Source: an uncultured Hormoscilla sp.
GTDB lineage: Bacteria; Cyanobacteriota; Cyanobacteriia; Cyanobacteriales; Desertifilaceae
Assembly (NCBI GenBank): GCA_963921275.4
Contig: OZ001293.3
Span: forward strand, 6,304,001 to 6,368,000
Direction of reading: 5' to 3'
Length of the DNA stretch: 64,000 bases
Shown: positions 5,672-25,296 of the stretch, one piece after another
How the letters are laid out: each line of letters starts with the position of its first letter
Numbering within the stretch: position 1 is the first letter of the stretch
The notes under the pieces: model-generated
Databases searched by the model: none
What the model was told of the DNA's origin: nothing
Seen by the model: only the letters and a program-made list of their open reading frames with translations
Made by a program: the position numbers and the translations under genes

Positions 5672-5673
5672 GA

Positions 5674-7062
5674 CTAGGAACGGCTTGTGGCCTCTGCTAA
5701 AACTGGTAGGGAATTGCGCAACCGATCGCCATACATATCCAAGGCATTTCCTCCTAATAGTAATCCTAAATGCTCCCGATCGTATTCTGCGACTGTTGCT
5801 GCATCCTCCACGCAATTATGCAACACCCCATCCCAGTGACCGTAATCTCCCGAAAAACATGCCAAATGCTTGCCTATCTCTCCCATCCCTACATGCAGGT
5901 AACTCGGTCCCGGATCGTCTGACTCGAAGGAGGTAAAGATTTGTCCCCTTTCAAAATATTCTAGCGGATCCCGGTGCCGCAAGTCATAATGTTCGTATAG
6001 GCTGCGATCGTCTATCTTGGTGGGGTCGTGTTCCGCATTCCACAGCAACTCGAACAGATTTTTCGCTTGGTTAATCAGGTTCACATTATTAGCACCCTTC
6101 TCCTGAAGCAATAGTTTCGTATACGAAATCAAAGAAGGACGATAGGGATGCTTGGGGTCGAAGTCCCGGATGCGCTTTTCCCAATGTTCGTGGAAAGCAT
6201 GGGCTAGATCTGGCAACCATCCACAACCCCCCTCTAAAAAGCCTACCCTTAAGCTGGGAAACTGCTCAAATGCCCCGTCAAACACCATCCGCGCTAGTGC
6301 TAACTGTTGCTGGTTCCGCTGCACGAAAATGTGGGTCAGCACGAAAGTTTCCGTATGATCGGAAATTCCCCCTACCATGTAAGAACCCGGTCCCCCGTGG
6401 ATGCCCAAACCAATGTCTAAATCTACAGCTGCTTGTAAAATGGGTCGGAAGTCCGGATGACTGATTGCTTTACAGGTGCGAATCTCTGGAAAGGCATCCG
6501 GTGCTTTCGGATGGGGAATGGGCATGTTTGGTGCCACAGCAACAGATATCATTCCCAGTTCCTCTACGCAGCGACGCATTTCGGATACCGCAAAGTCTAC
6601 ATCCTGTAACGGTATGACGCCTATGGGTTTGAGTCGATCGCCATAGGGGCGGCAGTCCTCGGCTATATAGTTGTTATAGGCGCGACAGAGGGCGAGCGCC
6701 AGATCGCGGTCCAGAATGCTAGAAAACATCAGATTGAAGGTACCGTAGATTACCTGCACGTCAATGCCTTCTTTCTCCATCTGTTCGACTCGCACCCGGT
6801 TGAACATCGCACCCAGGGTAGTATCCGGATGCAGGTTGCGGAAACCCCCTTTGCCCAAACCCTGTGGTTGGGGAAACATCCGCACGAAATCATTTTTCCC
6901 TGTTTCTGGATTGAAATCTACGACCTTTCCCCGCTGATCTCCCAGACTATCGACTATCAAACCTACCCGATCGCGATATTCTGGTTCTAAATACCCCCGC
7001 ATTACCAGGGGATTCTCGATCTTATGGGCGTCCGCATCAATTACGAGTAAACCTTTGTACAT
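5674..7062 (-). CDS. Amidohydrolase family (Amidohydro_2) protein
   Basis: 462 aa; IDADAH, IHGG, FLEGGCGW, SGDYGHWD motifs. Confidence 0.88.
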   Translation of the reverse strand: MYKGLLVIDADAHKIENPLVMRGYLEPEYRDRVGLIVDSLGDQRGKVVDFNPETGKNDFVRMFPQPQGLGKGGFRNLHPDTTLGAMFNRVRVEQMEKEGIDVQVIYGTFNLMFSSILDRDLALALCRAYNNYIAEDCRPYGDRLKPIGVIPLQDVDFAVSEMRRCVEELGMISVAVAPNMPIPHPKAPDAFPEIRTCKAISHPDFRPILQAAVDLDIGLGIHGGPGSYMVGGISDHTETFVLTHIFVQRNQQQLALARMVFDGAFEQFPSLRVGFLEGGCGWLPDLAHAFHEHWEKRIRDFDPKHPYRPSLISYTKLLLQEKGANNVNLINQAKNLFELLWNAEHDPTKIDDRSLYEHYDLRHRDPLEYFERGQIFTSFESDDPGPSYLHVGMGEIGKHLACFSGDYGHWDGVLHNCVEDAATVAEYDREHLGLLLGGNALDMYGDRLRNSLPVLAEATSRS

Positions 7063-7139
7063 CTTTGACTTTATCCTTTGAAGTTCTCATTATCTTAGCG
7101 CCTTTCGTGGAGTAATGGTGGGCGGTTCCCACCCTACAG

Positions 7140-7454
7140 CTAGGCAGTTTTACGATTCAAGTAGGTCCATATTTGGCGCAAACCAAACCAATTTTCGTTC
7201 GACCACGACATCGAGGCCAGTATAGTAATGCCCGGATACTTGACAAATGCAGGTTCATTCTTCTCGAACACTGCGTGTCCCCCCAAGGCAAATACTTGGG
7301 TGAGTATCAAGCACAGAACTGTCCATCGCCAGTCGTAGAATAAAACTACTACAGCCGCGATCGCCAATATATTGGTGAGGTGATGCAGCATCTGATTGAC
7401 TGGATGCTGATGGCTAGCAATAAAATGGGCTTTCGCTTCTTGGAAGTAACTCAA
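7140..7454 (-). CDS. Mpo1-like (DUF962) membrane protein
   Basis: H-Q-H-P-V-N..LH and GHAVFEKNEPA motifs; TTG start at 7454 behind an AAGGAG RBS. Confidence 0.8.
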   Translation of the reverse strand: MSYFQEAKAHFIASHQHPVNQMLHHLTNILAIAAVVVLFYDWRWTVLCLILTQVFALGGHAVFEKNEPAFVKYPGITILASMSWSNENWFGLRQIWTYLNRKTA

Positions 7455-7507
7455 TGCTATTCTCCTTAAGTTACAGATTCTCTTCCTAATATCACGGTTT
7501 GAGGGAT

Positions 7508-10393
7508 CTACCACCACCGCAGCTGCAAATAACCCCTCGCGGGTTGCTTCAGTTCCTCCTCAGTTAGCCAGTCTACAGGCTTGTAGGTACCAAAGACACG
7601 GTCCCACCAATCAACAGCCAGACCAAAATTATGTTCCCACATGCCGTACTTATGATGCACGTAATGAACGGGCATCGCCATCCAGAAGCACTTGGTCGGG
7701 TGTTAAACTAAGCCAGTACGTCACCGTACCGACTCGTCTTCAAAACCGGACGTGAGATTTTCACCTCATCCGGCTCCTCAATAATGCCATCCTTTACATG
7801 GATACGACAACTACCATCACGGGCAGTTTTTATATCGTGGCAGTGTTTATGCAGTAGTTGGATGTTTTCCCACTGGTCCTTACCACCTAGTGATAGGAGT
7901 TTGATGTGGTCCACTTCCCATTTGTCTTCGTCCCTGAACGTTAATCCGCATTCTTGGCATTTACCCTTTTGTCTTTTGAGCAGTTTGGCCACTCGATTGT
8001 TCAACTCGGGGTTTTTGCCTAGTCTTGTACTCCAATATGTCAAGTCTCCATCGTATGGGCTGGCTGCCCCTTTTACCTTTATGTGCCTTACTACTTCCGT
8101 TCGACTGTGTTGTAGTAGCACTGCTTCTCCTGTCTCAGTTTTGCACCGGAATTGCCATTGTACATCTTGGCCTATCGACCAATACTTTTTGGCTATCCAG
8201 TGTTTTGACTTGTTTGGGTGCCGTCTTTTTGCCCATGTCCATAGAAGCTCCCACAGATATTTGTCCATATCGGAGAAAGTCTCCTTACTTACTACCGTCT
8301 TAAAGTAGTTTGTCCACCCTCGTATGACCGGGTTAAGTTTGCTTATTAAGGCTCCCTGTGGTGCTGCTTTATGACTGGTCACAATTTCTGACAATCTACC
8401 TTTGTGTTCATCTATGGACTCTTTGCTTGGTTTTATTAGGGTTTTGAATCCTAGGGGTTCTCCATGTGGATTTTTGCCTGTGTGGTATTTCCCTACCTCA
8501 TACTGCCTCACATGGAATCCCAGAAAATTAAACCCTGGGTTTTCACCGTTAAGTGTATGAGATGTTTTCGTTTTTTCAGGCTTCAGTTCTAACCCTATTC
8601 CTCCTAACCAATCCGCTACAACCCTCTGCGCTCTTTCTATTGTTTCCCTGTCCTTGTGTATTACTACAAAGTCATCGGCGTATCTAACTACTTTCAGCTC
8701 CTTCCTGTTGTTTCCTGCTATGGACTTTACTTTTTCCTCTAATCCGTGTAAGGCCACATTTGCCAACAGTGGCGATATGACCCCACCTTGAGGAGTTCCG
8801 TAGGGAGTTTCGAGCGTTTTTCCTGCATCTATCACGCGGGCTTTTAGCCATGCGCGTATTTGTCTACGAAAGATAGGCAAGGTATTTAGTTTTGTTAGTA
8901 GCGCTTCGTGGTTGATTTTATCGAAGCATTTAGCAATATCGGCATCTAGTACGTACTTGTCCTTACACCTTATGCTGTTAAATATTGCTCCGATTGCATC
9001 ATGGCACCCTCTACCTGGTCTAAAGCCGTAGGAATTTGGCTCAAAATATGCCTCCCATTCGGGTTCTAAGGCAGATTTCACCAATCCCTGAAGTGCGCGG
9101 TCGTACATAATTGGGATTCCTAGTGGACGTTTTTCGCTCTTGCCCGGTTTAGGTATCCACACTCGTCGCGCGGGCCTTGCCTTGCTTGAGATTTTTAACA
9201 GTCCTACCAATTCGACGCGCTGCTTTGGGGACAACGCCTTTACGCCATCCACACCGGCAGTCTTCTTTCTTTGGTTATCTTGTGTTACCCGTCGTACCGC
9301 TAAACACTTGGCTGACCAGGACTTAACCAGTAATCTTTGGAGCTTGCGGACTGTTCGCCTATCACCACGTTGTGCCGCTCTGTAAATTCGTTTTTGCAGC
9401 TTGTAGACTTTCCGCTCTAGCTTGCGCCAGGGGATGGTCTGCCATTCATACATCGATTTTGACATCGTGCTCATAACGTTTGCACTGCTACTTACAACTT
9501 CACAATTGACATTATCGTGAGGGCGTCAGCGTATCCTGACCATTACAGTCAGGCGTTTGCTTCTCCACTCAATCCTTCCCGGCTATGACCTGCTTTCTGG
9601 AGAGCAGATGTTGCGTCTTTGGTGACTACTCCACCGATCGACCACTGGTGGAGAGTACATAACCGAGTTACTTCGTTCCTACAGATGATTGTTTGTAGTT
9701 TTAGGTGGGTTTTATACGCCGGGTTTTTGGTCAGTGCTTGATGGTCGGACGATAAACCGCCATCGACCTTATCCTTCCCCTTTTGGGGCCGGTGTTTCAG
9801 CCTTATTTCACCGGTTCTACATGACGACGTTTATAAACCTTCTCTTACGATCACCATGACTACTTGCTTGGCGGTAACCGGTGTAGGCTACCAGTCATTG
9901 CGCCGTTCATTCCCGCTTTATGGATTGATGTCATCGTTACCATAGGGAGAGTGCTGTCACTCCTGCACCTGGAGGGGTGGGCTTTCACCACCATCATCTG
10001 TAAGTTGTCAGGGCTAATGTCACCCTGCTAGTGGTCCCCATTAGTGACTTGTGTCACGTTTGTTTACACTAAACGAATCGCACTATTATGTTGTAGCTGA
10101 TGGGCATAGGCGGCAAAGGCGGCAAACACCAGTCCCCCCAGGAACCAACCAATTCCTGCTGCCCAGGAGATGAAGAACATCATACACATTACCACAAAGC
10201 TGCCGACGATGTAATCCCGAAATTCCCAAACCACGCCCTGTCCCTCGTTGCGCCGGTGATGGTCCCGATGGCGTTTGCCAATTTTCGGCGAGACATGCAT
10301 CAGGCGATGCAGCCAATATTCTACTAAACTTCCCAGGATAAAGGATCCTAGGAAACAGATAACTCCTACTCCTATGCTGCTTAAGGCGATCAT
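7508..10393 (-). CDS. Fatty-acid hydroxylase / sterol desaturase family protein split by a group II intron (exons 10393-10084 and 7701-7508; 167 aa spliced)
   Basis: His boxes LHRLMH, HRDHH, HQLQH, HYVHH and NFGLAVDWWDRVFGT; intron removal gives in-frame ..QHN-N-PTKCFW.. Confidence 0.9.
7702..10083 (-). mobile_element. Group IIB intron with intron-encoded protein
   Basis: 5' GTGCG, domain V GAGCCGGATGAGGTGAAAATCTCACGTCCGGTT, 3' TTTAAC; precise removal restores the host ORF. Confidence 0.95.
7708..9474 (-). CDS. ltrA: Group II intron reverse transcriptase/maturase with HNH endonuclease
   Basis: 588 aa; RPLGIP, SYGFRPGR, PQGGVISPLL, RYADD, maturase NPVIRGW, CxxC..EVDH..LLHKHCH. Confidence 0.95.
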   Translation of the reverse strand: MSTMSKSMYEWQTIPWRKLERKVYKLQKRIYRAAQRGDRRTVRKLQRLLVKSWSAKCLAVRRVTQDNQRKKTAGVDGVKALSPKQRVELVGLLKISSKARPARRVWIPKPGKSEKRPLGIPIMYDRALQGLVKSALEPEWEAYFEPNSYGFRPGRGCHDAIGAIFNSIRCKDKYVLDADIAKCFDKINHEALLTKLNTLPIFRRQIRAWLKARVIDAGKTLETPYGTPQGGVISPLLANVALHGLEEKVKSIAGNNRKELKVVRYADDFVVIHKDRETIERAQRVVADWLGGIGLELKPEKTKTSHTLNGENPGFNFLGFHVRQYEVGKYHTGKNPHGEPLGFKTLIKPSKESIDEHKGRLSEIVTSHKAAPQGALISKLNPVIRGWTNYFKTVVSKETFSDMDKYLWELLWTWAKRRHPNKSKHWIAKKYWSIGQDVQWQFRCKTETGEAVLLQHSRTEVVRHIKVKGAASPYDGDLTYWSTRLGKNPELNNRVAKLLKRQKGKCQECGLTFRDEDKWEVDHIKLLSLGGKDQWENIQLLHKHCHDIKTARDGSCRIHVKDGIIEEPDEVKISRPVLKTSRYGDVLA

Positions 10394-10576
10394 CGACTAT
10401 CCTTCCTTACCCTTGCGACATTCGGTCACCTTCAGGATTTTGACATAATCCGCTCCAGAATGCAAGGGCGATTGCGCTGCGCGCACGCTACGCGATTGCG
10501 GGTCGGAACCTCAATCTGCGCGTTCACAGTCATTTTTAATTGCTATAATGTTTGATGAACTGCCATCATCATAGCC

Positions 10577-11194
10577 ATGTCAAGCAATAAAAAGCCTAAG
10601 AAACAGAACTTCTCCAGCTTTGACAAAGCGAAAGCATTCAAGCAACTTAATTTAACGGACTTGCTTCCCTGGGATCTGCAAGCGGAACCCGTACAATCCA
10701 GTGATTTTTTTCAACAGCGCCTGGCTAGACTGAAAAATTTCGATTTAGAAAGCTGTGAAGAGTCTAAAAAACTGCTTATAGATGCCATTTGCGAAGAGGC
10801 GATCGATGCTTTTGTCCAGCTAAAGATTTGGAAAGGTGCGAGGCTTGAAAGTGACTTTGCTAATGACTATGTAGATTACTTAATTGCCGAAAATAAGCGG
10901 TATCTAGAAGCGCCCATGCTTTGTATTATCGAAGCCAAAAAAGATGACTTTGAGCAAGGAATGGCACAATGTCTGGTGGAAATGCAAGCCTGTCACTGGA
11001 CAAATCAGCAAATTGGCAAAAATATTGATGTTTTGGGAATAGTAACCAATGGTAGCACTTGGAACTTTTACAAGCTTACTCCCGCAGGGCAAGTTTACGA
11101 AAGCCTTCCTTACGCCCTCGGTACGATCGCCCAAATTCTGGGCTTACTTTATTATGTTTTTGAACAATGTCAGCAAAATCTCAACTGTTCGTAG
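10577..11194 (+). CDS. Hypothetical protein, PD-(D/E)XK / HsdR-N-like
   Basis: IIEAKKDDFEQGMAQC..GIVTNGSTWNF. Confidence 0.65.
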   Translation: MSSNKKPKKQNFSSFDKAKAFKQLNLTDLLPWDLQAEPVQSSDFFQQRLARLKNFDLESCEESKKLLIDAICEEAIDAFVQLKIWKGARLESDFANDYVDYLIAENKRYLEAPMLCIIEAKKDDFEQGMAQCLVEMQACHWTNQQIGKNIDVLGIVTNGSTWNFYKLTPAGQVYESLPYALGTIAQILGLLYYVFEQCQQNLNCS

Positions 11195-11282
11195 TAAGCA
11201 CTTTAGTGCTTAAATTCTTCCCCGTTCGTAGTAAGCACGAAGAGTGCTGATCTTTCCTTGTTACTGGGAGTGGGGCGATCGC

Positions 11283-11387
11283 TTGCTGATATCGCCCAGG
11301 GGTCGATCGCCCCTTGGTTGGAGATGGAACCAGAACTGCGATCGCAACTAGAACGGAACTTGACTGCCAACCCCGTGAGGGCGCGGG
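11283..11387 (+). repeat. 105-bp copy of an internal GH3 gene segment (17626-17730)
   Basis: Near-identical direct repeat, preceded by a HIP1 site (11275-11282). Confidence 0.9.
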
Positions 11388-11423
11388 CATCGCATGCGCT
11401 GCGCGCAGGCATCGTGATAAACT

Positions 11424-14400
11424 TCAATTAACCACAGTGAAATCATCGACATTAATCAGGGTCGAATCAATCCCCTGCAGGGTGGCCAGGGTTTTCCCTT
11501 CAAAGTTAATCCGGGTATCGAGGCCCATCCTGACGATCGCCAAATCGTCGAAACTCAAACCTCCTGCTAGCCCAATCGAGTCCGTGCCATCTTCAAAGTC
11601 TATAATGGTATAGCCCATGCCCGACTCCAGAACAAAAAGATCGGCCTGCTGAGATCGTCCGTAGAGGCTATCGTTTCCATCTCCGCCGATGAGACCGTCG
11701 TTTCCGTAGACGCGATCGCTTCCATTTCCGCCGGTGAGGGGGTCGTCCTCCTGGAGGCGATCGTCCTGACCGACTATTAGTGAGGCGACCTCCAGAACAT
11801 CGTTGACGTTAATCGTGAAGACCTCCGAGTAACTGGCCCCAGTAACGTCGGTAGTCTGGACGCGGATGCCGTAACTCGATCGGGTCGGGGAACTGTTAAT
11901 TAGCAGTTGGTCCCCTACTATGGTGAAAGCAGCGTTATCATTGTCACCAAAGCCCGAGGTTAACCGGTAGGTAAAGGTATTTCCCCCGTCGGGATCGCTA
12001 GTAGAGAAAGTCCCCACGATTGTACCCTCACGGGAGTTGGAGTTGATGTTGTTGTCGCTAAGGGCTATCTCGGTAGGAGACTCGGCAACATTGTTCACAT
12101 TAATAGTCAAGACCTCCGAGTAACTGGCCCCTGTCTGGTCGGTAGTCTGGACTAATATCCTGTAAATCGACTGAGTCTCAAAGTCCGGGGAACTGTTAAT
12201 TCGCAGTTGGTCCCCTACTATGGTGAAAGCAGCGTTATCATCGCCACCAAAGCCGGAGACTAACCGATAGGTAAAGGTATCTCCCTCGTCGGGATCGCTA
12301 GTTCCGAAAGTCCCCACGACTGCACCCGATGGAGAGTTTTCATTGATGATGCTGCTGCTGAGAACTATATCGGTAGGAGAGGAGTTCTCTGCAACGTCGG
12401 TGACATTAATAGTCAAGGCCTCCGAGTAACTGGCCCCAGTCTGGTCGGTAGTCTGGACGCGGATGCTGTAACTCGACTGAGTCTCAAAGTCAGGGGAACT
12501 GTTAATTCGCAGTTGGTTCCCTACTATGGTGAAGGCGGCGTTATCATCGTCACCAACGCCTGAGACTAACTCGTAGGTAAAGGTATCTCCAGAGTTGGGG
12601 TCAGTAGTGGATAAAATCCCCACAACAGTATTGGCTGGGGAGTTTTCATTGATATTGATGCTGCCGCTGAGTTCGATGTCGGTAGGAGATTCGGCAACAT
12701 CGTTGACGTTAATAGTCAAGACCTCCTCGTAACTGGCCCCAGTCTGGTCGGTAGTCCGGACGCCGATGTTGTAACTCGACTGGGTCTCAAAGTCCAAAGA
12801 ACTGTTAGTTAGCAGTTCGTCCCCTACTATGATGAAGGCGTTGCTGCCGGAGAGTAACTGGTAGGTAAAGCTATCTCCAATGTCCGCGTCGGTAGTGGAG
12901 AAAGTCCCCACGACTGCACCCAATGGGGAGTTTTCATCAATGCTGCTGTTGCTGAGAACTATGTCAGTAGGAGAGGAGTTCTCAGCAACATCGTTGACGT
13001 TAATAGTCAAGGCCTCCGAGTAACTGGCCCCAGTAGCGTCGGTAGTCTGGACGCCGATCCTGTAACTCGACTGAGTCTCAAAGTCCAAAGAACTGTTAAT
13101 TCGCAGTTGGTCCCCTACTATGGTGAAGGCGGCGTTATCATCGTCACCAACGCCTGAGACTAACTGGTAGGTAAAGGTATCTCCAGAGTTGGGGTCAGTA
13201 GTGGAGAAAGTCCCCACGACTGCACCCAATGGGGAGTTTTCATCAATACTGCTGCTGCTGAGTTCGATGTCGGTAGGAGATTCGGCAACATCATTAACCT
13301 CAATAATCAAGACCCTCGAGAAACTGTCCCCAGCAGAGTCGGTAGTCTGGACGAGGATGCTGTAACTCGACTGGGTCTCAAAGTCCGGGGAACTGTTAAT
13401 CAGCAGTCGGTTTCCTTCTATGGTGAAGGCGTCGTTATCATCGGGACCAACGTCGGAGATTAACTGGTAGCTAAAGGTATCTCCCTCGTCGGGGTCGGTA
13501 GTCGAGAAAGTCCCCACGACTGTATCCGATGGGGAGTTTTCATTGATGCTGCTGTTGCTGAGAACTATGTCAGTAGGAGAGGAGTTCTCTGCAACATCGG
13601 TGACGTTAATAGTCAAGACCTCCGAGTAACTGGCCCCAGCAGCGTCGGTAGTCCGGACGAATATCTCGTAACTCGACTGAGTCTCAAAGTCCAAAGAACT
13701 GTTAGTTCGCAGTTCGTCCCCTACTATGGTGAAGGCGTTGCTGCCGAAGAGTAACTGGTAGGTAAAGCTATCTCCAATGTCGGCGTCGGTAGTGGAGAAA
13801 GTCCCCACGACTGCACCCAATGGGGAGTTTTCATTGATGCTGCTGTTGCTGAGAACTAGGTCGGTGGGAGTAGAGTTCCCTACAACATTAATGCTAAAGG
13901 TATCTGTCCCTTCACCTAGATCTTCGTCTATGGCGGTTACCGTTACGGTAAAGTTGCCTGCGGTAGTAGGGATACCGCTGATAACTCCCCGACTGTTGAT
14001 GGTTAAGCCCTCTGGTAAACCGATAGCTGTGTAGTTGTTGATGTTACCATTGTTGATGTTACCATTGATGTCGCCGAAGTTGTCGCTAATGTCTTCGTTG
14101 AAGTTATTCCCTGACAAGAGATCAAAGTCAAAGTCGGGAATCTCGGTTCTTACATAAGGGGGGTTTTCCAATAGCTTGTTAGCCCGCAAATTTAGAACCT
14201 CTTGGGGGATGGTGCCAGTTAGTCGGTTGTCGAACAGCCAGAGCTCTTCCAAATTGGAAAAATTTCCTAACTGAGGAGGGATGGAACCAGTCAGTCGGTT
14301 GTTGAACAGCCAGAGCTCTTCCAAATTGGAAAGATTCCCTAACTGAGGAGGGATGGTGCCAGTCAGGTCGTTGTTGAACAGCCAGAGAGCTACCAAATTG

Positions 14401-15833
14401 GAAAGATTTCCTAACTGAGGAGGGATGGTGCCAGTTAGTCGGTTGTTGTCCAGGTGGAGATCCTCCAAATTGGAAAGATTTCCTAACTGAGGAGGGATGG
14501 TGCCAGTTAGTCGGTTGTTGTCCAGGTCGAGCTCTTCCAAATTGGAAAGATTCCCTAACTGAGGAGGGATGGTGCCAGTCAGTCGGTTGTTGTCCAGGTC
14601 GAGATCGTCCAAATTGGAAAGATTCCCTAACTCACTCGGGATGCTGCCAGTCAGTCGGTTGTTGTCCAGGTCGAGCTCTTCCAAATTGGAAAGATTTCCT
14701 AACTGAGGAGGGATGGTGCCAGTCAGGTCGTTGTTGTCCAGGTCGAGCTCTTCCAAATTGGAAAGATTCCCTAACTGAGGAGGGATGGTGCCAGTCAGGC
14801 CGTTTTCCTCCAGCTCAATTACCGTCACCCTGCCGTTCTCTACCGTTACCCCAAACCAATCGTTAAGATCATTAGGGGGAGTTGGGCTGCTGAAATCCCA
14901 GCCTTCATTGTTCTGCCAAGAATCCCCATTTGTGGCGTCGTATAGGGCCCTCAGTGCCTGATAGTCGCTAAGAAGGGGGTTAACAAGGGGGTTGTTGCCG
15001 GACAGGTCGAGCTGTTCCAAATTCAGATTATCTAACTCCTGAGAGATGCTGCTACTCACACTCAGGTTGTTGTTGGACAGGTCGAGAGCTTCCAAATTGG
15101 AAAGATCCCCTAATTCCGTCGGGATGGTGCCACTCAGTTGGTTGTTGGACAGGTTGAGCTCTTCCAAATTGGAAAGATTCCCTAACTGAGGAGGGATGGT
15201 GCCAGTCAGGTCGTTCGACTGCAGGTTGAGCTCTACCAAATTGGAAAGATTCCCTAACTGAGGAGGGATGGTGCCAGTCAGGCCGTTTTCCTCCAGATCG
15301 AGTACCGTCACCCTGACTCTATCTAGATCCACCCCAAACCAATTATCAACAACAGACTCATCGGGGGGAGTGTCACTGTTGAAATTCCAGTCCTCCCAGC
15401 CTGTATTGTCATCCCAAGATGTCCCACCCGTGCCTTGGTATAGAGACCTTAAGGCCTCATAATCCTGCTGATTGAGGGGGGCCAGCTTAGCCATCAACTC
15501 CTCTCTTGCATCTCCGGCGGCCACGTTACAGCCGTAGAGTAGGAGTTTTTTGATTTTCCACCCCCGCAGGGTAGAGGCGTAATCCCCTAGGGTATCTAAA
15601 CTCAGTTGGGAGTTCCCCAGATACAGACAGCCAGGGCTGCCGTGGGAGAGTAGGTGAAGAACCTCTGTTTCCCGATGCTGTAGGAGTTGTTCGCCGATCT
15701 GTTCGATGCCATCGGACTGAAGGTCTAAGAGGAAGGGTTTGGTTCCAGGCTGGAGGCCGTCTATAAGCTGCTGGTAGTTTTCTAAAGAGGGATCCACTAC
15801 TACCATGGTGAAGGCATTGGTATTATTCTTCAT
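11424..15833 (-). CDS. Large secreted protein: DUF4347 + plant-type LRRs + Ig-like + cadherin repeats + RTX-like C-terminus
   Basis: LHLLSHGSPGCLYLG; 24-aa LxxLxLxxNxLTGTIPPQLGNL repeats; ~7 cadherin units (DFETQSSY); GGNGSD/GGDGND tail. Confidence 0.88.
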   Translation of the reverse strand: MKNNTNAFTMVVVDPSLENYQQLIDGLQPGTKPFLLDLQSDGIEQIGEQLLQHRETEVLHLLSHGSPGCLYLGNSQLSLDTLGDYASTLRGWKIKKLLLYGCNVAAGDAREELMAKLAPLNQQDYEALRSLYQGTGGTSWDDNTGWEDWNFNSDTPPDESVVDNWFGVDLDRVRVTVLDLEENGLTGTIPPQLGNLSNLVELNLQSNDLTGTIPPQLGNLSNLEELNLSNNQLSGTIPTELGDLSNLEALDLSNNNLSVSSSISQELDNLNLEQLDLSGNNPLVNPLLSDYQALRALYDATNGDSWQNNEGWDFSSPTPPNDLNDWFGVTVENGRVTVIELEENGLTGTIPPQLGNLSNLEELDLDNNDLTGTIPPQLGNLSNLEELDLDNNRLTGSIPSELGNLSNLDDLDLDNNRLTGTIPPQLGNLSNLEELDLDNNRLTGTIPPQLGNLSNLEDLHLDNNRLTGTIPPQLGNLSNLVALWLFNNDLTGTIPPQLGNLSNLEELWLFNNRLTGSIPPQLGNFSNLEELWLFDNRLTGTIPQEVLNLRANKLLENPPYVRTEIPDFDFDLLSGNNFNEDISDNFGDINGNINNGNINNYTAIGLPEGLTINSRGVISGIPTTAGNFTVTVTAIDEDLGEGTDTFSINVVGNSTPTDLVLSNSSINENSPLGAVVGTFSTTDADIGDSFTYQLLFGSNAFTIVGDELRTNSSLDFETQSSYEIFVRTTDAAGASYSEVLTINVTDVAENSSPTDIVLSNSSINENSPSDTVVGTFSTTDPDEGDTFSYQLISDVGPDDNDAFTIEGNRLLINSSPDFETQSSYSILVQTTDSAGDSFSRVLIIEVNDVAESPTDIELSSSSIDENSPLGAVVGTFSTTDPNSGDTFTYQLVSGVGDDDNAAFTIVGDQLRINSSLDFETQSSYRIGVQTTDATGASYSEALTINVNDVAENSSPTDIVLSNSSIDENSPLGAVVGTFSTTDADIGDSFTYQLLSGSNAFIIVGDELLTNSSLDFETQSSYNIGVRTTDQTGASYEEVLTINVNDVAESPTDIELSGSININENSPANTVVGILSTTDPNSGDTFTYELVSGVGDDDNAAFTIVGNQLRINSSPDFETQSSYSIRVQTTDQTGASYSEALTINVTDVAENSSPTDIVLSSSIINENSPSGAVVGTFGTSDPDEGDTFTYRLVSGFGGDDNAAFTIVGDQLRINSSPDFETQSIYRILVQTTDQTGASYSEVLTINVNNVAESPTEIALSDNNINSNSREGTIVGTFSTSDPDGGNTFTYRLTSGFGDNDNAAFTIVGDQLLINSSPTRSSYGIRVQTTDVTGASYSEVFTINVNDVLEVASLIVGQDDRLQEDDPLTGGNGSDRVYGNDGLIGGDGNDSLYGRSQQADLFVLESGMGYTIIDFEDGTDSIGLAGGLSFDDLAIVRMGLDTRINFEGKTLATLQGIDSTLINVDDFTVVN

Positions 15834-16141
15834 TTTAAGGTTGCTGAATTTTGAATGGCTTAGGAACGAGTCGCTCCCTTATATATGTATACTTCAGATG
15901 GGGTTCGGGATATTTCGGATAATTTCAAAAATTATTTGCTGTGTTATCGGTTAGAGAAAAAATAGATGAACCGAGGAGAGGGAAACGATGCCTACCGTTC
16001 CGGAAAAATCGGGAGTATGGCCAAAACCCTGTCGCAGAGAGAAAATGCGCATTTTTTCGATGACCGGTGGTAAAAAATCAATGATTTACTACCGGTGATA
16101 GACGGCCATGTAGGAGGAACGGCCAAAAATAAATTGACTCT

Positions 16142-16500
16142 TCGGCGTTGGGTAGTGAAGGGTCGGGGTTGGGTAGTGAAGGGTCGGGGTTGGGTAGTGA
16201 AGGGTCGGGGTTGGGTAGTGAAGGGTCGGGGTTGGGTAGTGAAGGGTCGGGGTTGGGTAGTGAAGGGTCGGGGTTGGGTAGTGAAGGGTCGGCGTTGGGT
16301 AGTCTAGGGTCGGCGTTAGATCTCCACCCCTGCGCGTTGAGTGGCGACCCGTGCCCGTTGTCGCTCCACCTGGGTTGGGTTAAGCTTGCACTCCTGCGCG
16401 TTAAGCTTGCACCTAGGCGCGTTGAGTAGTGACCTATGGGCAGACCATAGTGACCCGTGCGCGTTAAGCACAACTCCACCGCATTAAGCACAACGAGCAA
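16142..16500. repeat. 21-bp tandem array (8 near-perfect units to 16309, degenerate beyond)
   Basis: TCGGGGTTGGGTAGTGAAGGG units. Confidence 0.9.
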
Positions 16501-16632
16501 TCTTTCCCCTAAACGGAACCAAGATCCTAGGGAACGACCAGTGAAGTGCCCTGCCGCTCGGGCGACAGGGTCTCTCGCGCTCACTTGTAGTTGATAGCCA
16601 GGTGCATTGATGATGTCCTCCCTATTGGGATA

Positions 16633-16723
16633 AGCTGTCGCGCATTAAATTGCATAGTTTGAAGAAATAATTTTGAATTGCTTAAGACCGATATCGTCGT
16701 AGTTTACAAGATATCTGGCAGCT
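16633..16723. mobile_element. MITE-like remnant related to 61600-61719
   Basis: TA-AGCTGTCGCGCATTAAATTGCATA left end, degenerate ..CAGCT-TA right end. Confidence 0.5.
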
Positions 16724-16916: not shown

Positions 16917-18602
16917 ATGACAAATTTATTGCTGCCGTTTTTGATAAAGATAGCCAAGTATAGTAAAGAGAGGTTTGTAGCAAAAACTCTTCAAGTGGAT
17001 GCTGTCCAGGAAAAGTTCCTCTTTAACCTATTACGGGCCCATCAAGATACTCAATTAGGTCGCGTTGACCAGTTGTCTGAGGTGAAGACTGTCGATCAGT
17101 TTCGCGATCGCATTCCCATCAGGCCCTATAGCAGCTACGAACCATACTTGGAAAAGATTACCCAAGGAGAAAATCACATCCTGACTGCCCAAAAAGTAAT
17201 ATACATGACTTTGACTAGCGGGTCAACGGATAAGCAGAAACTGATTCCCACCACCAGGAAATTTCAAAGCATAGTCCGGAATGCGAGTCTAGTCAGCATG
17301 GGATTTCTGGCAGAGGCATTGGCAAAACGGGGGCAGAAGTTTGGTAAACTGCTGGTGACTAACTCAGTGCAACAATGGGGACGTACTCCTGGGGGAATTG
17401 ATTATGGGCCATCCAGCGCCGGGGTTCTGCGTCTGGATAAGCGTCTGTTTGCCCAATTCTTTGCCCACCCCTACGAGACTGCCAAGCTAAGTGATAGTCT
17501 GACGCGCCATTATGTGGCCCTGCTGTTTGCCCTCGGCAACCGGGAAATGGGGGGGACAATCGCTAATTTTCCTATGTTGATTCTGCGGACTTGCAACTAT
17601 TTGAGTCAGTATGCCGAAAGTTTAATTGCTGATATCGCCCAGGGGTCGATCGCCCTTTGGTTGGAGATGGAACCAGAACTGCGATCGCAACTGGAACGGA
17701 ACTTGACTGCCAACCCCATGAGGGCGCGGGAACTCCAGGAAATCTTACAATCCCACGGAAAGCTGACTCCTAAGTTAGCATGGCCCAATCTGGCGGTGGT
17801 AGCAACGGCGAGGGGCGGAACTTCCGATTTTTACTTTCAGCGGTTTCCCGAGTATTTTGGGGATACTGCAATTTTCGGAGTTGTCTTCTCTTCGGCGGAA
17901 GGGATGTTCGGCATCTACCCGGATGTGAATACAGATGGTAGCATTTTAGCCATTGAGAGTGGCTTTTTTGAATTCATTCCCGAAGACCAATGGGGAGTAG
18001 AACATCCGCAAACCTTGCTGGCGACGGAAGTGCAGGTGGGACAGAGGTATCGTATCCTGACAACTACCTACAGTGGATTTTATCGCTACGACATTGGCGA
18101 TGTCATCGAGGTAGTAGGATTCGATCGGCAAGCACCCTTAATTGTGTTTCGCCATCGCCAAGGGGGACAAATGTCCAGTACCACTGAGAAAACTAACGAA
18201 CATCACGTTACTCGGGTGCTTCAGGCCCTGCAAGGGGAGTTTCATCTTAATTTGGAGGACTTCTGCATTACTCTCTCGGAACGGGACTTTCCCGCCCGCT
18301 ATCTGATTAATATCGAACTCGCTGACGGGGATACACTGTCGGACCCCCAAGCTTTTCTGTCAAAGTGCGATCGCCTGTTAGGGGAAAACAACACCCACTA
18401 CGCAATTTCGCGTCAAAGTGACATCCCGCCGCCGCGCCTGCGCCTGCTAGAAAAGGGAAGTTTTGACATTTTGCGCCAGCGCCAGTTAGCGCGAGGAATA
18501 CCTGATTCTCAACTTAAATTTGCCCATATCAGCGAAGACCGGAATTTTCTGGAGGGGTTGGTCGTAGAAAAGGAAGTGAGGCTGCCAGATGATGTCAACT
18601 AA
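16917..18602 (+). CDS. GH3-family acyl-acid amido synthetase
   Basis: 561 aa; LTSGSTDKQKLIP, FSSAEG, FFEFIP, YRYDIGD. Confidence 0.9.
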   Translation: MTNLLLPFLIKIAKYSKERFVAKTLQVDAVQEKFLFNLLRAHQDTQLGRVDQLSEVKTVDQFRDRIPIRPYSSYEPYLEKITQGENHILTAQKVIYMTLTSGSTDKQKLIPTTRKFQSIVRNASLVSMGFLAEALAKRGQKFGKLLVTNSVQQWGRTPGGIDYGPSSAGVLRLDKRLFAQFFAHPYETAKLSDSLTRHYVALLFALGNREMGGTIANFPMLILRTCNYLSQYAESLIADIAQGSIALWLEMEPELRSQLERNLTANPMRARELQEILQSHGKLTPKLAWPNLAVVATARGGTSDFYFQRFPEYFGDTAIFGVVFSSAEGMFGIYPDVNTDGSILAIESGFFEFIPEDQWGVEHPQTLLATEVQVGQRYRILTTTYSGFYRYDIGDVIEVVGFDRQAPLIVFRHRQGGQMSSTTEKTNEHHVTRVLQALQGEFHLNLEDFCITLSERDFPARYLINIELADGDTLSDPQAFLSKCDRLLGENNTHYAISRQSDIPPPRLRLLEKGSFDILRQRQLARGIPDSQLKFAHISEDRNFLEGLVVEKEVRLPDDVN

Positions 18603-18665
18603 TGATATCATCTGTTAGATTAGCAGGAGGTTTGAACCCCCTGGGGCTGGCGGGCGATCGGGTTA

Positions 18666-19634
18666 ATGTGGGCAAACGGGAGGAAGACATCTACAATGAA
18701 TAAAGTAACAAATCCTATCTCTAGGGAAGAGATATCAGAACTCACGCCGGAAAGATTTGTGAGAGAATATCAAAAACCAGGGATGCCGGTAGTGATTAAA
18801 GGATTACTGGCGGACTGCGAAGACTGGAGTTTGGACTATCTTTGCCAAGAGTTGAGTTCGCAAGAGTTTCTGTCCCGGTGGTACGGAAACCAGAGGTACA
18901 AATTGGACAAACGCCAATGGCAAAACATTGGCAGTGGGGTGGACACGAAAAGTTTGCCATTTACTACCTATGCCGAGATGTTGCGCAACCATAAGGCCCA
19001 CGAACAGGACATTTACTTAGCTAAATGTTCTCTGAAAGATACGTCTTTGGAGGAAAAAGCATCTCGAATAAAGATAGGAGAGAAGTTGGGTTTAGAGAAA
19101 CCCGCTAGCGACTTGAATATGTGGGCGGGACCGGGAGGTCACGTGGAAGCCTTACATTATGATACCCTAGATGGGACATTAATGCAACTGCACGGTGCTA
19201 AAAAGGTGGTGCTGTTCCCCAGTTCCCAAACAGCTAATCTTTATCCCTTTCCAGTTTCCGTGCATTTGCGCCACGGCTTAAAGTTGCGTTCTTGGTTCAG
19301 TCAGGTGTACCCGGAAAAACCCGATCTGCAAGCTTTTCCTAAATTAAGAGAAGCGCTACAATACAAGCAGGAAGTAATATTGCATCAAGGGGAAACCCTC
19401 TTTATTCCTGCCGGTTGGTGGCATGAAGTGACGGCTTTGGGAGATGAAATGGTCTGTTCGGTGAATCGCTTTTGGGGCGTATATCCTCTATCGAGGGCGC
19501 TATTTTCCTACAGTGCCTGGCGGACCTATTTGGGCATACTCTTGGCCATGCCTTATATGCTAGCACAAGGAGCGATCGCTTTCGGGAGTCGAGACCGGAA
19601 GCAAAAGATCGCCCAACTGTGGCGGATGCTGTAA
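18666..19634 (+). CDS. JmjC / cupin-like Fe(II)-2OG oxygenase
   Basis: PVVIKG, LHYD, GAKKVVLF, LFIPAGWWHEV (HxD..H); start may be 18696. Confidence 0.88.
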   Translation: MWANGRKTSTMNKVTNPISREEISELTPERFVREYQKPGMPVVIKGLLADCEDWSLDYLCQELSSQEFLSRWYGNQRYKLDKRQWQNIGSGVDTKSLPFTTYAEMLRNHKAHEQDIYLAKCSLKDTSLEEKASRIKIGEKLGLEKPASDLNMWAGPGGHVEALHYDTLDGTLMQLHGAKKVVLFPSSQTANLYPFPVSVHLRHGLKLRSWFSQVYPEKPDLQAFPKLREALQYKQEVILHQGETLFIPAGWWHEVTALGDEMVCSVNRFWGVYPLSRALFSYSAWRTYLGILLAMPYMLAQGAIAFGSRDRKQKIAQLWRML

Positions 19635-19704
19635 TGTCAACTTAGGTCTCAAACTCGGTTTATCGTCTAAACCGAGTTTGGAAGATAGGACAGGAGAAAA
19701 AATC

Positions 19705-20346
19705 ATGACGATGACTGCGGTGAAAGAACCACCACCACAAACCACCCAGCGAGTAATCTTAGAGAATGTCAGTTGGGAGACTTACAAGCAACTATTGGCA
19801 GAAATGGGCGATCAGCGCACATCGCGGATCGCCTATAATCAAGGAGTGCTGGAAATCATTATGCCATCAGACCGCCACGAAACTTATAAGCAACTACTAG
19901 AACGAATGGTGAATACTCTGACAGAAGAACTGAATCTCAGGGTAAAGGGGTTTGCTTCGACAACATTGAATCGAGAAGATTTCCGGAAAGGTGCCGAACC
20001 TGACTCCTGCTATTACATCCAAAATGTAGACCGCATTATGGGTCGCACTGTAGACCTAGCGAACGACCCTCCGCCGGACTTAGTAATTGAAGTCGATATA
20101 ACCAGTTCTTCCAGGCGTCGATTTGAGATTTACAGACAGCTAGGAGTGCCGGAAATTTGGCGCTATCTAGGACAAACTGTCAGAATTAACCAATTGCAAG
20201 AAGAGGAATATGTTGAACGTGACTATAGTCCAACATTTTCCTTTGTTTCTGCGGCGATAATTAATCAATTTCTCCAAAGGGCAGAAACTACTGATGATAC
20301 TACGATGATTCGGGCCTGGCGTCAATGGGTAGGAGAGCAATTCTGA
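19705..20346 (+). CDS. Uma2-family endonuclease
   Basis: SWETY, GAEPDSCYYIQN, PPPDLVIEVDITS, LGVPEIWRY. Confidence 0.9.
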   Translation: MTMTAVKEPPPQTTQRVILENVSWETYKQLLAEMGDQRTSRIAYNQGVLEIIMPSDRHETYKQLLERMVNTLTEELNLRVKGFASTTLNREDFRKGAEPDSCYYIQNVDRIMGRTVDLANDPPPDLVIEVDITSSSRRRFEIYRQLGVPEIWRYLGQTVRINQLQEEEYVERDYSPTFSFVSAAIINQFLQRAETTDDTTMIRAWRQWVGEQF

Positions 20347-20520: not shown

Positions 20521-20832
20521 ATGAACCAAGAAGAACAGAACCCACTGAGGAGTAAACTAGAGAAAGAATTGCAAGAGTCAGAATGGTTACAGAAGTTCAA
20601 GCAACTGAGTGCAGGACTCAGGCAAATTAAAACAGAAATTCCACTTACGCAACTCGGCAACCTAGAATGGATGACGGATACCGAAAGCCTGATAATTCAC
20701 TGTCCTAACCCAGAAGTGAGGGCCGGGTTGTCTCAGCAGATACCCCAGATCGCCCAAATTAATATTGGGGCCAACCTCTTTATCCTCAAACACCCGAACT
20801 ACCCAGACATTATCATCCATCCTAATTGTTGA
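20521..20832 (+). CDS. Hypothetical protein
   Basis: 103 aa ATG-started ORF with protein-like composition. Confidence 0.55.
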   Translation: MNQEEQNPLRSKLEKELQESEWLQKFKQLSAGLRQIKTEIPLTQLGNLEWMTDTESLIIHCPNPEVRAGLSQQIPQIAQINIGANLFILKHPNYPDIIIHPNC

Positions 20833-20997
20833 AACTTGGGAATTGAAAATTGGGAATTGTTCAAGCAATTAATCCAGTACTTCGGAGCGCGCAATAATTA
20901 TCAATTAGTAGGGAAGATTAGCAATAAGCAATTAGTCAGAGCTGATGTTACAATATATGTAAATTTGTAGAGAAGTTGTGTAGATAGGTTATTTATT

Positions 20998-22245
20998 ATG
21001 GCATCGATCGCCCGCAAGAACCTATTGGAAGACATTCCCCGCTTCCTCGTAGCCCAGGCAGGGATTATGTTTGCCGTCAGCCTGGTGACGATTCAGACCG
21101 GCATACTCAAGGGGTTTACTCGCTCGACGGTGCAGTTGATCGAAAATTCCCCAGCTGACATCTGGGTAGCATCCCAGGAAATGTTGCATTTAGAATTGAC
21201 AAAGCCCCTGCTGTTGGAGTACGCTTTACTGGCTAAACAGGTGGAAGGGGTCGATCGGTCGGAACCCTTGATGAGGGGAATAGCTCAGTGGAATGTTCCC
21301 GGGGCGGAACTGACTCCTGTGAAGGTATTCGGTTTCGACCCAGGGGGGCAATTATTTTTACCTGGCAAGGTCAACCCCAGCAGCTTGCGGGCCCTGAAGG
21401 AACCTTACACCGCGATCGTCGATGCCAGCAATTTAGATTCCCTGCACGTCCGAGGTGTGGGCGATCGGGCAGAAATTGGCTCTTTGCCAGTGCGGTTGGT
21501 AGGCTTAACTAAAGAAACTCAGTCGATCATATCGAGTCCCTTCGTGTTTACCTCCTTGAAAAGTGCCAACGCCTATCTCAATGCTGGTGTCACTTCTAAG
21601 CTGAACTGCAAGCTGCTACCCGAGGGCGATATCAAATGCGTCACTATTTACGAACAGGAAGAAACTACGGAAACATCAGCAGTTTCTCCTCCCAAACCCT
21701 TAAACTTAACAGACCCGATCGTCTACGTGTTAATTCGGGCCAAACCAGGGGAGGATCTACAGGCACTCAAACGGCGGTTAGAAGCGGCTTTGCCAGATAG
21801 CCAGGCCTATACTCGTGCGGAAATAGCTAACCAGACCCGCGACTACTGGCAGCAGCGCAGCGGCATTGGATTTATTCTCGGTTTGGGTGCGGCGGTGGGT
21901 GTTATGGTGGGTATGGTAGTTGTCGGTCAGATCCTCTACTCTTCTGTATCCGATCATCTCAAAGAGTTTGGAACACTCAAAGCAATGGGGGCGTCTGACT
22001 GGGTAATTTACAGCGTCATTATCGAGCAAGCCCTGTGGATGGCAGTTATAGGATATGTTCCCAGTATGATCCTTTGCTTGGCCTTGGCATCTTGGGCCTT
22101 GGCAAGTCAGGGAATTATGATTTTGATCACGCCCCTATCTGCCGCCGGAGTTTTGGGAATTACCCTGCTGATGTGTGTCGGTTCAGCTTTCTTCGCCATT
22201 CAAAAAGTGACTCGCGTCGATCCGGCGATCGTCTTCAAAGCCTAA
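20998..22245 (+). CDS. ABC transporter permease (DevC/FtsX-like)
   Basis: MASIARKNL.., HLKEFGTLKAMGAS, DPAIVFK. Confidence 0.9.
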   Translation: MASIARKNLLEDIPRFLVAQAGIMFAVSLVTIQTGILKGFTRSTVQLIENSPADIWVASQEMLHLELTKPLLLEYALLAKQVEGVDRSEPLMRGIAQWNVPGAELTPVKVFGFDPGGQLFLPGKVNPSSLRALKEPYTAIVDASNLDSLHVRGVGDRAEIGSLPVRLVGLTKETQSIISSPFVFTSLKSANAYLNAGVTSKLNCKLLPEGDIKCVTIYEQEETTETSAVSPPKPLNLTDPIVYVLIRAKPGEDLQALKRRLEAALPDSQAYTRAEIANQTRDYWQQRSGIGFILGLGAAVGVMVGMVVVGQILYSSVSDHLKEFGTLKAMGASDWVIYSVIIEQALWMAVIGYVPSMILCLALASWALASQGIMILITPLSAAGVLGITLLMCVGSAFFAIQKVTRVDPAIVFKA

Positions 22246-22285
22246 AACTCGTTGCAATCGCAATTAGCCATTCGCAATTATTTAC

Positions 22286-23059
22286 TTGATCAGACTTATG
22301 AGTAATTCTCAAATTGCTGGGTTTTCGCAAATCCACATGGGGGGTGCCTCTACTACTATCGATCGAGAGCGCAGTAACACATCGGCTATCTCTGCTGTCG
22401 GGATAGAGATGGTTTTCGGTTCGGGTGCTGCGCGCTTTCAGGCCTTGAAGGGCATCGATCTGCAGATCCAATCGGGCAGTATCCAACTGTTGATGGGGCC
22501 ATCGGGTTCGGGTAAAACTACTTTACTCTCAATTGTAGCTGGGCTGCTGACGCCCACGGCGGGCAGAATCTATCTATTAGGAGAAGAGATTACCCAATTG
22601 TCCCGCACTAAGTTGTCCCGCTTCCGCCTGAAAAACATTGGCTTTATTTTTCAGGGGTTTAACCTGTTTCCGGCCCTGACTGCGGGTGAAAATATTGAAC
22701 TTGCTCTCCATCTTAAAGGCATTCGCGGCAGAACCGCCAGATATCAAGCACGAGAGTTGTTGGCAGCGGTGGGGTTAGGAGATAAAGTTAAGTCCCGCCC
22801 TCGTGACTTGTCTGGGGGACAGAAACAACGGGTCGCGATCGCCCGGGCCTTAGCTGGCAGGCCCCAGTTAATCATGGCCGATGAACCTACTGCTGCTTTA
22901 GACTCCCAGAGTGGACAAAATGTGATTCAATTATTGCGTCAGCTGGCCAAGGAACAAGGCTGCACTGTCTTGATGGTAACCCATGACCCCAGGATTATTG
23001 ATGTGGCCGATCGGGTTGCTTACCTGGAAGATGGTATCCTCAAACCCGAAGGTTCGTAA
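22286..23059 (+). CDS. ABC transporter ATP-binding protein (DevA-like)
   Basis: GPSGSGKT, LSGGQKQRVAIARA, MADEPT. Confidence 0.93.
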   Translation: MIRLMSNSQIAGFSQIHMGGASTTIDRERSNTSAISAVGIEMVFGSGAARFQALKGIDLQIQSGSIQLLMGPSGSGKTTLLSIVAGLLTPTAGRIYLLGEEITQLSRTKLSRFRLKNIGFIFQGFNLFPALTAGENIELALHLKGIRGRTARYQARELLAAVGLGDKVKSRPRDLSGGQKQRVAIARALAGRPQLIMADEPTAALDSQSGQNVIQLLRQLAKEQGCTVLMVTHDPRIIDVADRVAYLEDGILKPEGS

Positions 23060-25293: not shown

Positions 25294-25296
25294 TGT

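Follow-up and report, generated by a model that had tools for sequence, protein, structure and literature searches.

A gene cluster shared by many cyanobacteria and scattered in Hormoscilla may build, oxidise and export a ceramide-like lipid

Two divergent groups of genes from an uncultured Hormoscilla sp. (assembly GCA_963921275.4, contig OZ001293.3, positions 6,304,001 to 6,368,000) raise the question of whether they belong to one pathway and, if so, what that pathway makes. We will refer to the whole analysed stretch of 64,000 nucleotides as the window, and number positions from its first letter. One arm, on the minus strand, comprises a PF04909 Amidohydro_2 protein (the “amidohydrolase,” 5674-7062, 462 aa), a small Mpo1-like/DUF962 membrane protein (PF06127, 7140-7457, 105 aa; the longest open reading frame, ORF, extends to 7517) and a fatty-acid hydroxylase (FA_hydroxylase, PF04116) in two exons (7508-7701 and 10084-10393). 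The other, on the plus strand, encodes a GH3 acyl-acid amido synthetase (16917-18602, 561 aa), a JmjC/Cupin_8 hydroxylase of the Fe(II)/2-oxoglutarate type (18666-19634, 322 aa), a DevC-like MacB-type ABC permease with MacB_PCD and FtsX domains (20998-22245, 415 aa) and a DevA-family ABC ATPase (22286-23059, 257 aa; TIGR02982). A first-pass annotation had listed all these genes, and Pfam searches of the 45 ORFs of the window found each of them where it had been placed. It had also proposed that they form the tailoring and turnover half of one ancestral lipid cluster. The other half comprises an extended SDR (32520-33494), a tandem-GNAT homolog of YghO (33491-34615), an oxoamine synthase (AONS, 34643-35932) and a Rieske oxygenase (35975-37078), all on the minus strand, together with an MFS transporter on the plus strand (38082-39305; Pfam), which in other genomes immediately follows GH3 and has the reverse orientation. 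The genes of the two arms are indeed one half of a cluster that is contiguous in many cyanobacteria and has been pulled apart here by insertions; in our judgment, it is moderately probable that this cluster serves to assemble, oxidise and export an N-acyl amino-lipid resembling ceramide.

The unity of the cluster emerges from the surroundings of GH3 in other genomes. When one genome per species was scanned with a GH3 profile, 349 relatives were recovered; from the best 80 of these came 76 loci, cyanobacterial or unclassified, many of them from related metagenome-assembled genomes (MAGs). Neighbouring ORFs were called in all 76 loci and clustered blind, and 36 of the loci had full 10-kb flanks. 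Twelve families recurred as GH3 partners, in 14-42 loci each, the next being Uma2 with 7, followed by families with 6 and 5. Counted in all 76 loci and in the 36 full-flank loci, respectively, these partners are FA_hydroxylase (42 and 23), the amidohydrolase (34 and 19), the Mpo1-like protein (33 and 18), AONS (31 and 18), MFS (30 and 17), Rieske (28 and 18), GNAT (27 and 19), SDR (22 and 15), a B12 radical-SAM/DUF4070 protein (22 and 13), JmjC (19 and 8), DevC (16 and 12) and DevA (14 and 11). At least one partner accompanies GH3 in 62 of the 76 loci (29 of the 36 with full flanks), both halves are found together in 22, and nine core genes lie within ~14 kb in 12, five of which also carry DevA and DevC. 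A typical contiguous order, seen in loci L100, L074, L093 and L046 and in its general form optionally preceded by DevC<, is AmidoH2< Mpo1< FAH< [JmjC<] GH3> MFS< Rieske> AONS> GNAT> SDR> DevA< DevC<, where AmidoH2 stands for the amidohydrolase and FAH for FA_hydroxylase.

The same picture is obtained by other routes. When the window proteins were searched by tblastn against 20-kb stretches around GH3, cluster partners stood beside GH3 in 12 of 14 relatives. In a Hormoscilla relative (G001), Rieske-AONS-GNAT-SDR directly abuts DevA-DevC-orf103-JmjC-GH3, and in a genome of another family (G031) the order is AmidoH2-Mpo1-FAH ... GH3-MFS-Rieske-AONS ... GNAT. The cluster proteins of the 76 loci, whose records bear the names of a dozen or more cyanobacterial families, share 58-86% identity with those of the window, and a FastTree phylogeny of 82 GH3 proteins shows partner-bearing loci in all major branches, solitary GH3 being confined to a few small groups. 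Contiguous clusters also occur in cultured strains, namely Coleofasciculus sp. H7-2, Chlorogloea sp. CCALA 695, Nostoc minutum NIES-26 and Stigonema ocellatum SAG 48.90. The first-pass annotation would have fallen had the orthologs failed to co-localise with the SPT-like operon; they do co-localise in many cyanobacteria. Its proposal of one ancestral cluster, devoid of polyketide synthase (PKS) and nonribosomal peptide synthetase (NRPS) genes, is thus well founded, both on the contiguous clusters and because the SPT-like operon of G001 directly abuts the GH3 arm. Of the recurrent partners, the B12 radical-SAM/DUF4070 gene (L074:15740-17329, L093:4305-5924, L046:4898-6481 and a further 19 loci) has no counterpart in the cluster of Hormoscilla, and this genome has only a 66%-identical paralog distant from the window (C1:4830587-4832146). 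Its use as a phyletic marker was dropped: paralogs of ~65% identity in 41/41 relatives make its presence unscorable.

Occurrence across 41 relatives is nested. A strong GH3 match was found in 15 (19 at E <= 0.001, including weak paralogs), GNAT in 19, among them every one of these 15, and amidohydrolase orthologs in 12, all among those same 15 (a tally of 14 includes two matches of 32% identity). The hydroxylase/Mpo1/amidohydrolase arm thus behaves as an accessory of GH3, and GH3 as an accessory of the AONS/GNAT core, a nesting that fits the “tailoring” role given to this arm at first. All tested cluster genes of this half are under purifying selection, with ratios of nonsynonymous to synonymous substitution rates (dN/dS) of 0.05-0.30 in nine cluster-gene segments compared with G004 and G001, exons being taken apart; the amidohydrolase stands at 0.05 against G004. 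The intervening orf205 (0.115) and Uma2 gene (0.234) fall within the range of the cluster genes.

In Hormoscilla the hydroxylase, contrary to its earlier description, is not a single ORF; the gene is present, and a group II intron splits it. The 109-aa ORF at 10064-10393 (-) covers only profile positions 4-89 of PF04116, while an intact ortholog reaches 51.9 bits over positions 1-132. Exon 1 carries the HRLMH, HRDHH and HQLQH boxes and alone scores 34.5 bits (Pfam cut-off 31), and the missing HYVHH box was found in exon 2, within the stop-to-stop frame 7508-7702 (-). Spliced in silico, the exons form one open frame of 167 aa, free of internal stops and identical to the G004 ortholog at 162/167 positions, and HRLMH, H-x-x-HH, HQLQH and HYVHH are invariant across 13 orthologs. 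The 2,382-bp element between them (7702-10083, -) is identified as a group II intron from its domain V/VI (7702-7778; Rfam RF00029, 57.4 bits, and RF04357, 64.5 bits), its intact intron-encoded protein with reverse transcriptase, maturase and HNH domains (7708-9474; Pfam), its ends (GTGCG right after exon position 10084, AC at 7703-7702) and the empty site in orthologs. Same-genus genomes align to 5404-7701 plus 10084-11198 as a single unbroken stretch, the intron being exactly missing at the junction 7701|10084 in G002, G003 and G004; the boundaries are therefore exactly 10083..7702. The genome is heavily colonised by such elements, as judged from 24 further near-full-length relatives of this intron (75-78% identity) and a third Rfam match to a group II domain V/VI in the window (49162-49239, +, 46.6 bits).

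Besides the intron, the arms are separated by other sequences. They are divergent, as first described, and not direct neighbours, since orf205 (10577-11194, +), a DUF4347/LRR/cadherin protein of 1,469 aa (11424-15833, -; Pfam) and orf168 (16078-16584, -) lie between the hydroxylase and GH3. The last two belong to a lineage-specific 5.4-kb insert (11283-16675), which is missing from G002 and G004 in the genome alignment; at its left border stand 105 bp copied from GH3 codons 237-272 (11283-11387, 97.1% identical to 17626-17730), which, from their sequence, are a rearrangement scar. Separating inserts are present, and the description “mobile-looking” does not suit the largest of them, which is a surface-protein gene and no obvious mobile element. 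Between JmjC and DevC, a Uma2-family gene (19678-20346, +; Pfam) and orf103 (20521-20832, +) act as filler. In other genera, orf205, Uma2 and orf103 are not cluster members: orf205, whose HSDR_N match is non-significant (E 0.031), occurs in 3/76 GH3 loci, all three from Hormoscilla, Uma2 lies near GH3 in 7/76, and orf103 is confined to Hormoscilla.

The segment between the two cluster halves has a history of its own. A decayed restriction-modification block lies downstream of devA, and 118 bp from the 3' end of devA are directly repeated on its two sides (22941-23058 and 26518-26635, 94.9% identical), which indicates that the block was inserted behind devA. It holds an Eco57I-like methyltransferase in two ORFs (23109-25293, -; N-terminal part 24604-25293, C-terminal part 23109-23813), with a group II domain V/VI match at 23751-23827 and no intron-encoded protein between the ORFs; this element could be an intron without an ORF or else a remnant, and the stretch 23749-25351 is missing from G004. 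A XamI-type restriction endonuclease (25297-26260, -) is likewise in two ORFs (25763-26260 and 25297-25650), so that the restriction-modification system looks decayed. Next come, at 26714-32091 (-), a CmcI-type methyltransferase, a D-2-hydroxyacid dehydrogenase, a class I/II aminotransferase (best model GntC-like, 172 bits, under its cut-off) and several S-adenosylmethionine-dependent methyltransferases. In G002, a pair of these methyltransferases (MT340/MT118) adjoins the SDR, together with a partial SDR duplicate, and this block may represent extra tailoring genes specific to Hormoscilla. Finally, a transposase fragment lies between the Rieske operon and the MFS gene. The Hormoscilla cluster is thus parted by the hydroxylase intron, the 5.4-kb insert, Uma2, the restriction-modification block, the methyltransferase/aminotransferase block and the transposase fragment.

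As to what the cluster makes, the core operon points to the bacterial ceramide loci. The GNAT is 31% identical to E. coli YghO over its full length (374 aligned columns, pairwise E 4e-61) and 29% identical, also full length, to a Sphingomonas homolog (E 2e-54). In E. coli (NZ_AP022222.1, 775706-794818), the neighbours of yghO encode a fatty acyl-AMP ligase (FAAL), an epimerase/dehydratase, an acyl carrier protein (ACP), Spt, LptG and LptF, and those of the Sphingomonas homolog an NAD(P)H-binding protein, an ACP, a class I/II aminotransferase, LptF/G and a desaturase; yghO itself is present in 4,549 of 5,426 complete E. coli genomes. This homology and gene context connect the GNAT with the N-acyltransferase found in ceramide loci of bacteria, and from its context we infer that YghO is bCerS. 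The known bacterial ceramide gene set, as described for Caulobacter, consists of Spt, bCerS and CerR with an ACP and an acyl-ACP synthetase (PMC11334938, PMC11087976, PMC11324152). Bacterial ceramide loci and the operon described here have in common an oxoamine synthase, a YghO-type tandem GNAT and an epimerase-type SDR. Both also encode an ABC transporter of the “extractor” type, LptF/G in the ceramide loci and DevCA in the cluster. They differ in that the cluster lacks the ACP and acyl-ACP synthetase and adds GH3, five oxygenase genes, MFS and, elsewhere, the B12 radical-SAM protein. The GNAT family is large and poorly named: it has >7,000 database homologs, nearly all unnamed or “hypothetical” among 120 listed, 45 full-length homologs of 29-35% identity on plasmid records (tblastn), no sequence match in PDB or NCBIfam, and in the ESM Atlas only generic GNAT clusters (Cyanobacteriota, Chloroflexota, Thermodesulfobacteriota, Bacteroidota). 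For AONS, the best PDB sequence match is the SPT of Sphingobacterium (1.9e-38).

The GH3 protein belongs to its family, its N, M and C domains scoring 271.4, 85.6 and 73.2 bits against a Pfam cut-off of 23.6, and its profile finds ten plant GH3 structures in PDB (5e-57 to 2e-49). Invariant in 13 orthologs are S101-G102-S103-T104, K108, Y391-D392 and G394-D395, which we take to be nucleotide-binding motifs 1 and 3 of the adenylating fold. Its closest functional precedent may be OlsH, a bacterial GH3-family enzyme that joins a fatty acid and an amino group into a lipid amide with ATP and whose homologs are reported mainly from Bacteroidota, Pseudomonadota and Planctomycetota (PMC12493201). The OlsH/OlsI ornithine-lipid pathway of planctomycetes (PMC12493201) and the present cluster both contain a GH3-family enzyme, and the ATP/AMP motifs are kept here; the OlsH equivalog model (NCBIfam NF052613), on the other hand, gives 94.4 bits with a cut-off of 620, and no alpha/beta-hydrolase of the OlsI type recurs around GH3.

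The oxygenases differ in type. JmjC/Cupin_8 scores 132.6 bits (Pfam cut-off 27.4), has H164-x-D166...H253 invariant in 13 orthologs, and matches JMJD5 and FIH in PDB. The Mpo1-like protein (PF06127, 52.2 bits, cut-off 24) has a start at a conserved TTG near 7457, as placed by alignment, and invariant H36, H45, H46 and H81; its dioxygenase activity is predicted only. Among the proteins tested, hydrophobic segments are found only in the 167-aa hydroxylase, the Mpo1-like protein and DevC. In yeast, Scs7/FA2H carries out 2-hydroxylation, and Mpo1 the subsequent alpha-oxidation, of sphingolipid-derived fatty acids. The cluster likewise has a gene for a di-iron membrane protein of the FA_hydroxylase family adjoining a Mpo1-like gene, although the proteins are far smaller here, with 167 and 105 aa. 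The hydroxylase profile hit Scs7 in PDB at a non-significant E of 0.15, and this likeness was not used.

The “amidohydrolase” is likely an oxygenase. In ACMSD, the metal motif is H-x-H; here, that N-terminal position reads D-A-H, the fold itself being common to both. Eight positions are invariant or nearly so in an alignment of 44 sequences (D9, D11, H13, E16, H222, D406, H409, D411): the N-terminal D-A-D-A-H is conserved, with D11-A-H13 in 42-43 of the 44 homologs, and the C-terminal loop reads D-Y-G-H-W-D here and D-Y-P-H-x-D in relatives of 360-390 aa, its D, H and D being kept in 40-42 homologs and its third position being G in 21 and P in 19. PDB sequence matches are DitZ (4.2e-17), ACMSD (6e-15) and PtmU3 (6.4e-14); the predicted structure (pLDDT, the per-residue model confidence, 86.7) finds PtmU3 as best Foldseek match (E 7.4e-17, TM 0.81 on the target), with ACMSD at rank 2 and DitZ, SfbO, TruffO and AibH1H2 within the top 26. 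Two features define the ARO family of dinuclear oxygenases, an Asp/His pair near the N terminus and a D-x-P-H-x-[D/E] loop near the C terminus, and this loop is described as missing from characterised PF04909 hydrolases and decarboxylases (PMC13154177). The AROs treated there (PtmU3, DitZ, SfbO, AibH2, BarH-like) have in common with the present protein the PF04909 fold, the N-terminal D-x-H and the C-terminal D-x-x-H-x-D, whereas our protein has a glycine at the position where the motif of that paper has proline (PMC13154177), carries a C-terminal extension of ~100 residues, and has no small Rieske ferredoxin nearby. Sequence and model together thus suggest a glycine-variant ARO, a predicted oxygenase and not a hydrolase or decarboxylase. 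The “turnover” role read into the gene at first is unsupported, because the protein has the metal motifs of dinuclear oxygenases and looks like an oxygenase related to PtmU3 and DitZ. A whole-library search returned 4,834 relatives, of which three only are full-length, at 47-50% identity, when its own cluster at 50% identity is set aside. In one relative (P0131), a fused MaoC-like stretch scored 24 bits, under the cut-off, and was not used.

For export, the cluster has two candidate systems, MFS and the DevC/DevA pair. DevC scores 155.6 bits with the devC model TIGR01185 (cut-off 290.35), and DevA 268.6 bits with TIGR02982 (cut-off 295.8) and 202.8 bits with a LolD model; their orthologs in clusters of other genera are 58-65% and 67-77% identical, respectively. 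The absence of a nearby DevB, already pointed out in the first-pass annotation, was confirmed: no HlyD/DevB-type protein is encoded among the 45 window ORFs (Pfam) or in four contiguous clusters of other genera, and orf103, considered as a DevB remnant, was rejected for want of a supporting match. The DevBCA exporter of heterocyst glycolipids and this pump have a MacB-type permease and a DevA-family ATPase in common, but the window pump has no DevB/HlyD, stays below the DevC/DevA cut-offs, and is closer in architecture to extractors of the LolCDE type.

Taken as a pathway to a ceramide-like lipid, the cluster might operate as follows. The oxoamine synthase would condense an acyl thioester with an amino acid to an amino-ketone, which the tandem GNAT of the YghO/bCerS type would N-acylate and whose ketone the SDR would reduce. 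Two membrane iron enzymes (FA_hydroxylase and the Mpo1-like protein) and three soluble oxygenases (ARO-type, JmjC and Rieske) could then hydroxylate, desaturate or shorten the chains or the head group, GH3 would join a carboxylate to an amine with ATP, and the product would leave the inner membrane through MFS and the DevCA pump, which lacks DevB and resembles MacB/LolCDE. A lipid amide as product is our best inference from the enzyme families, strengthened by the YghO/bCerS-type GNAT and weakened by an oxoamine synthase that is not recognisable as Spt.

Several observations weigh against a ceramide-like product or limit how far the data carry. The NCBIfam Spt models give AONS at most 177.9 bits, with cut-offs of 500-670 (640 for the best model), and bioF scores higher (224.5); AONS is 25-26% identical to the Spt of Sphingomonas and E. 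coli and 39% (residues 42-257) to the other AONS paralog of the genome, so that by these scores it does not appear recognisable as Spt. Neither an ACP nor an acyl-ACP synthetase/FAAL was found among the recurrent neighbour families or the window ORFs, whereas in E. coli and Sphingomonas genes of both kinds go with spt. The SDR fits HpnA/SdmB models better than ceramide-specific ones, and the best model for the Rieske protein is the sterol 4-methyl oxidase SdmA (238 bits); a terpenoid-type substrate is therefore possible. JmjC-only hydroxylases of solved structure target proteins or tRNA, and the predicted structure of the GNAT has a low pLDDT (62.8), Foldseek supporting it at the level of the tandem-GNAT fold only. 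Concerning the cluster itself, GH3 is partnerless in 7 of the 36 full-flank loci, and the locus counts are not independent, because the best 80 of 349 relatives were taken and many are related MAGs. Four sequencing runs of one study, which contain 81-98% of the stretch, yielded genomic-type contigs only; the intron-less joint 7701|10084 was not found in these contigs over 5000-11500, where short joints (21-26-nt sides) are repeat-like.

Could the same genes serve breakdown or salvage instead? MFS would then import an exogenous lipid or terpenoid, the Rieske, ARO, FA_hydroxylase and Mpo1-type oxygenases would degrade it, including alpha-oxidation of 2-hydroxy acids, and AONS would cleave in the manner of Kbl. 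The best PDB sequence match of the “amidohydrolase,” DitZ, is indeed a diterpenoid hydroxylase of a degradation pathway, Mpo1 is named for the breakdown of 2-hydroxy fatty acids (Pfam description), Kbl-type models give AONS 188-191 bits, and the Rieske/SDR pair resembles the sterol demethylation pair SdmA/SdmB. Against such a pathway stand an N-acyltransferase of a ceramide-synthesis-locus family, an ATP-consuming ligase (GH3) and an outward-pointing ABC system of the MacB/Lol type, and the hosts are photoautotrophs of many habitats with no obvious common substrate; we thus consider it quite unlikely. A product that is not a lipid at all deserves similar scrutiny, since the GH3 profile is nearest to plant enzymes conjugating auxin and jasmonate, AONS matches a model of the CqsA-type autoinducer synthase (92 bits), relatives of JmjC hydroxylate amino-acid side chains, and the cluster has two exporters: GH3 might couple a small acid to an amino acid, JmjC hydroxylate the amino-acid part, and AONS make an autoinducer like CAI-1. 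Against such a small signal or conjugate, which we regard as unlikely, speak a YghO-type GNAT tied to spt loci and the fact that, of the enzymes with the tightest linkage to GH3, two (FA_hydroxylase in 42/76 loci, the Mpo1-like protein in 33/76) are integral membrane proteins with iron that belong to lipid-modifying families.

Coincidental adjacency of unrelated neighbours might be argued from the window, whose arms are 6.5 kb and 9.5 kb apart with unrelated genes in between; the recurrence of 12 families around GH3 in different cyanobacterial families, all others reaching at most 7/76, and the nested occurrence across genomes make it highly improbable. The synthesis and export of a ceramide-like N-acyl amino-lipid remains the interpretation that we prefer.

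Outside the cluster, hemB (ALAD, 49833-50935, -) looks frameshifted: its main frame (50090-50872) meets a stop after matching positions 2-229 of the 317 in the profile, and the C-terminal 96 aa continue in another frame (49833-50123). Either the assembly is wrong here, or an essential gene is truly broken.

No published description of this cluster of 12-13 genes, nor of cyanobacterial sphingolipids, ceramides or Spt, was found in a literature search that lacked many subscription papers. Standard cluster finders likely miss it, because it has no PKS or NRPS. A further-reaching proposal, which we put forward tentatively and hold to be rather doubtful, is that numerous cyanobacteria have their own route to a genuine lipid of the sphingolipid type, with a divergent AONS, a GNAT of the bCerS/YghO type and an SDR building the backbone, GH3 replacing the ACP/acyl-ACP-synthetase module and adding a further amide, five oxygenases decorating the molecule and a DevB-less MacB-type pump bringing it to the envelope; the phylum would thereby have its first pathway to sphingoid lipids. 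As contiguous clusters exist in cultured strains, the question of the product is directly testable. Hormoscilla itself offers an example of a cluster scattered by intron and insert invasion without inactivation. If the product is indeed a ceramide-like lipid, sphingoid lipids would join the envelope biology of cyanobacteria, bacterial GH3 enzymes would gain a second lipid role after that of OlsH, and a new glycine-variant branch of the AROs would acquire a physiological context.

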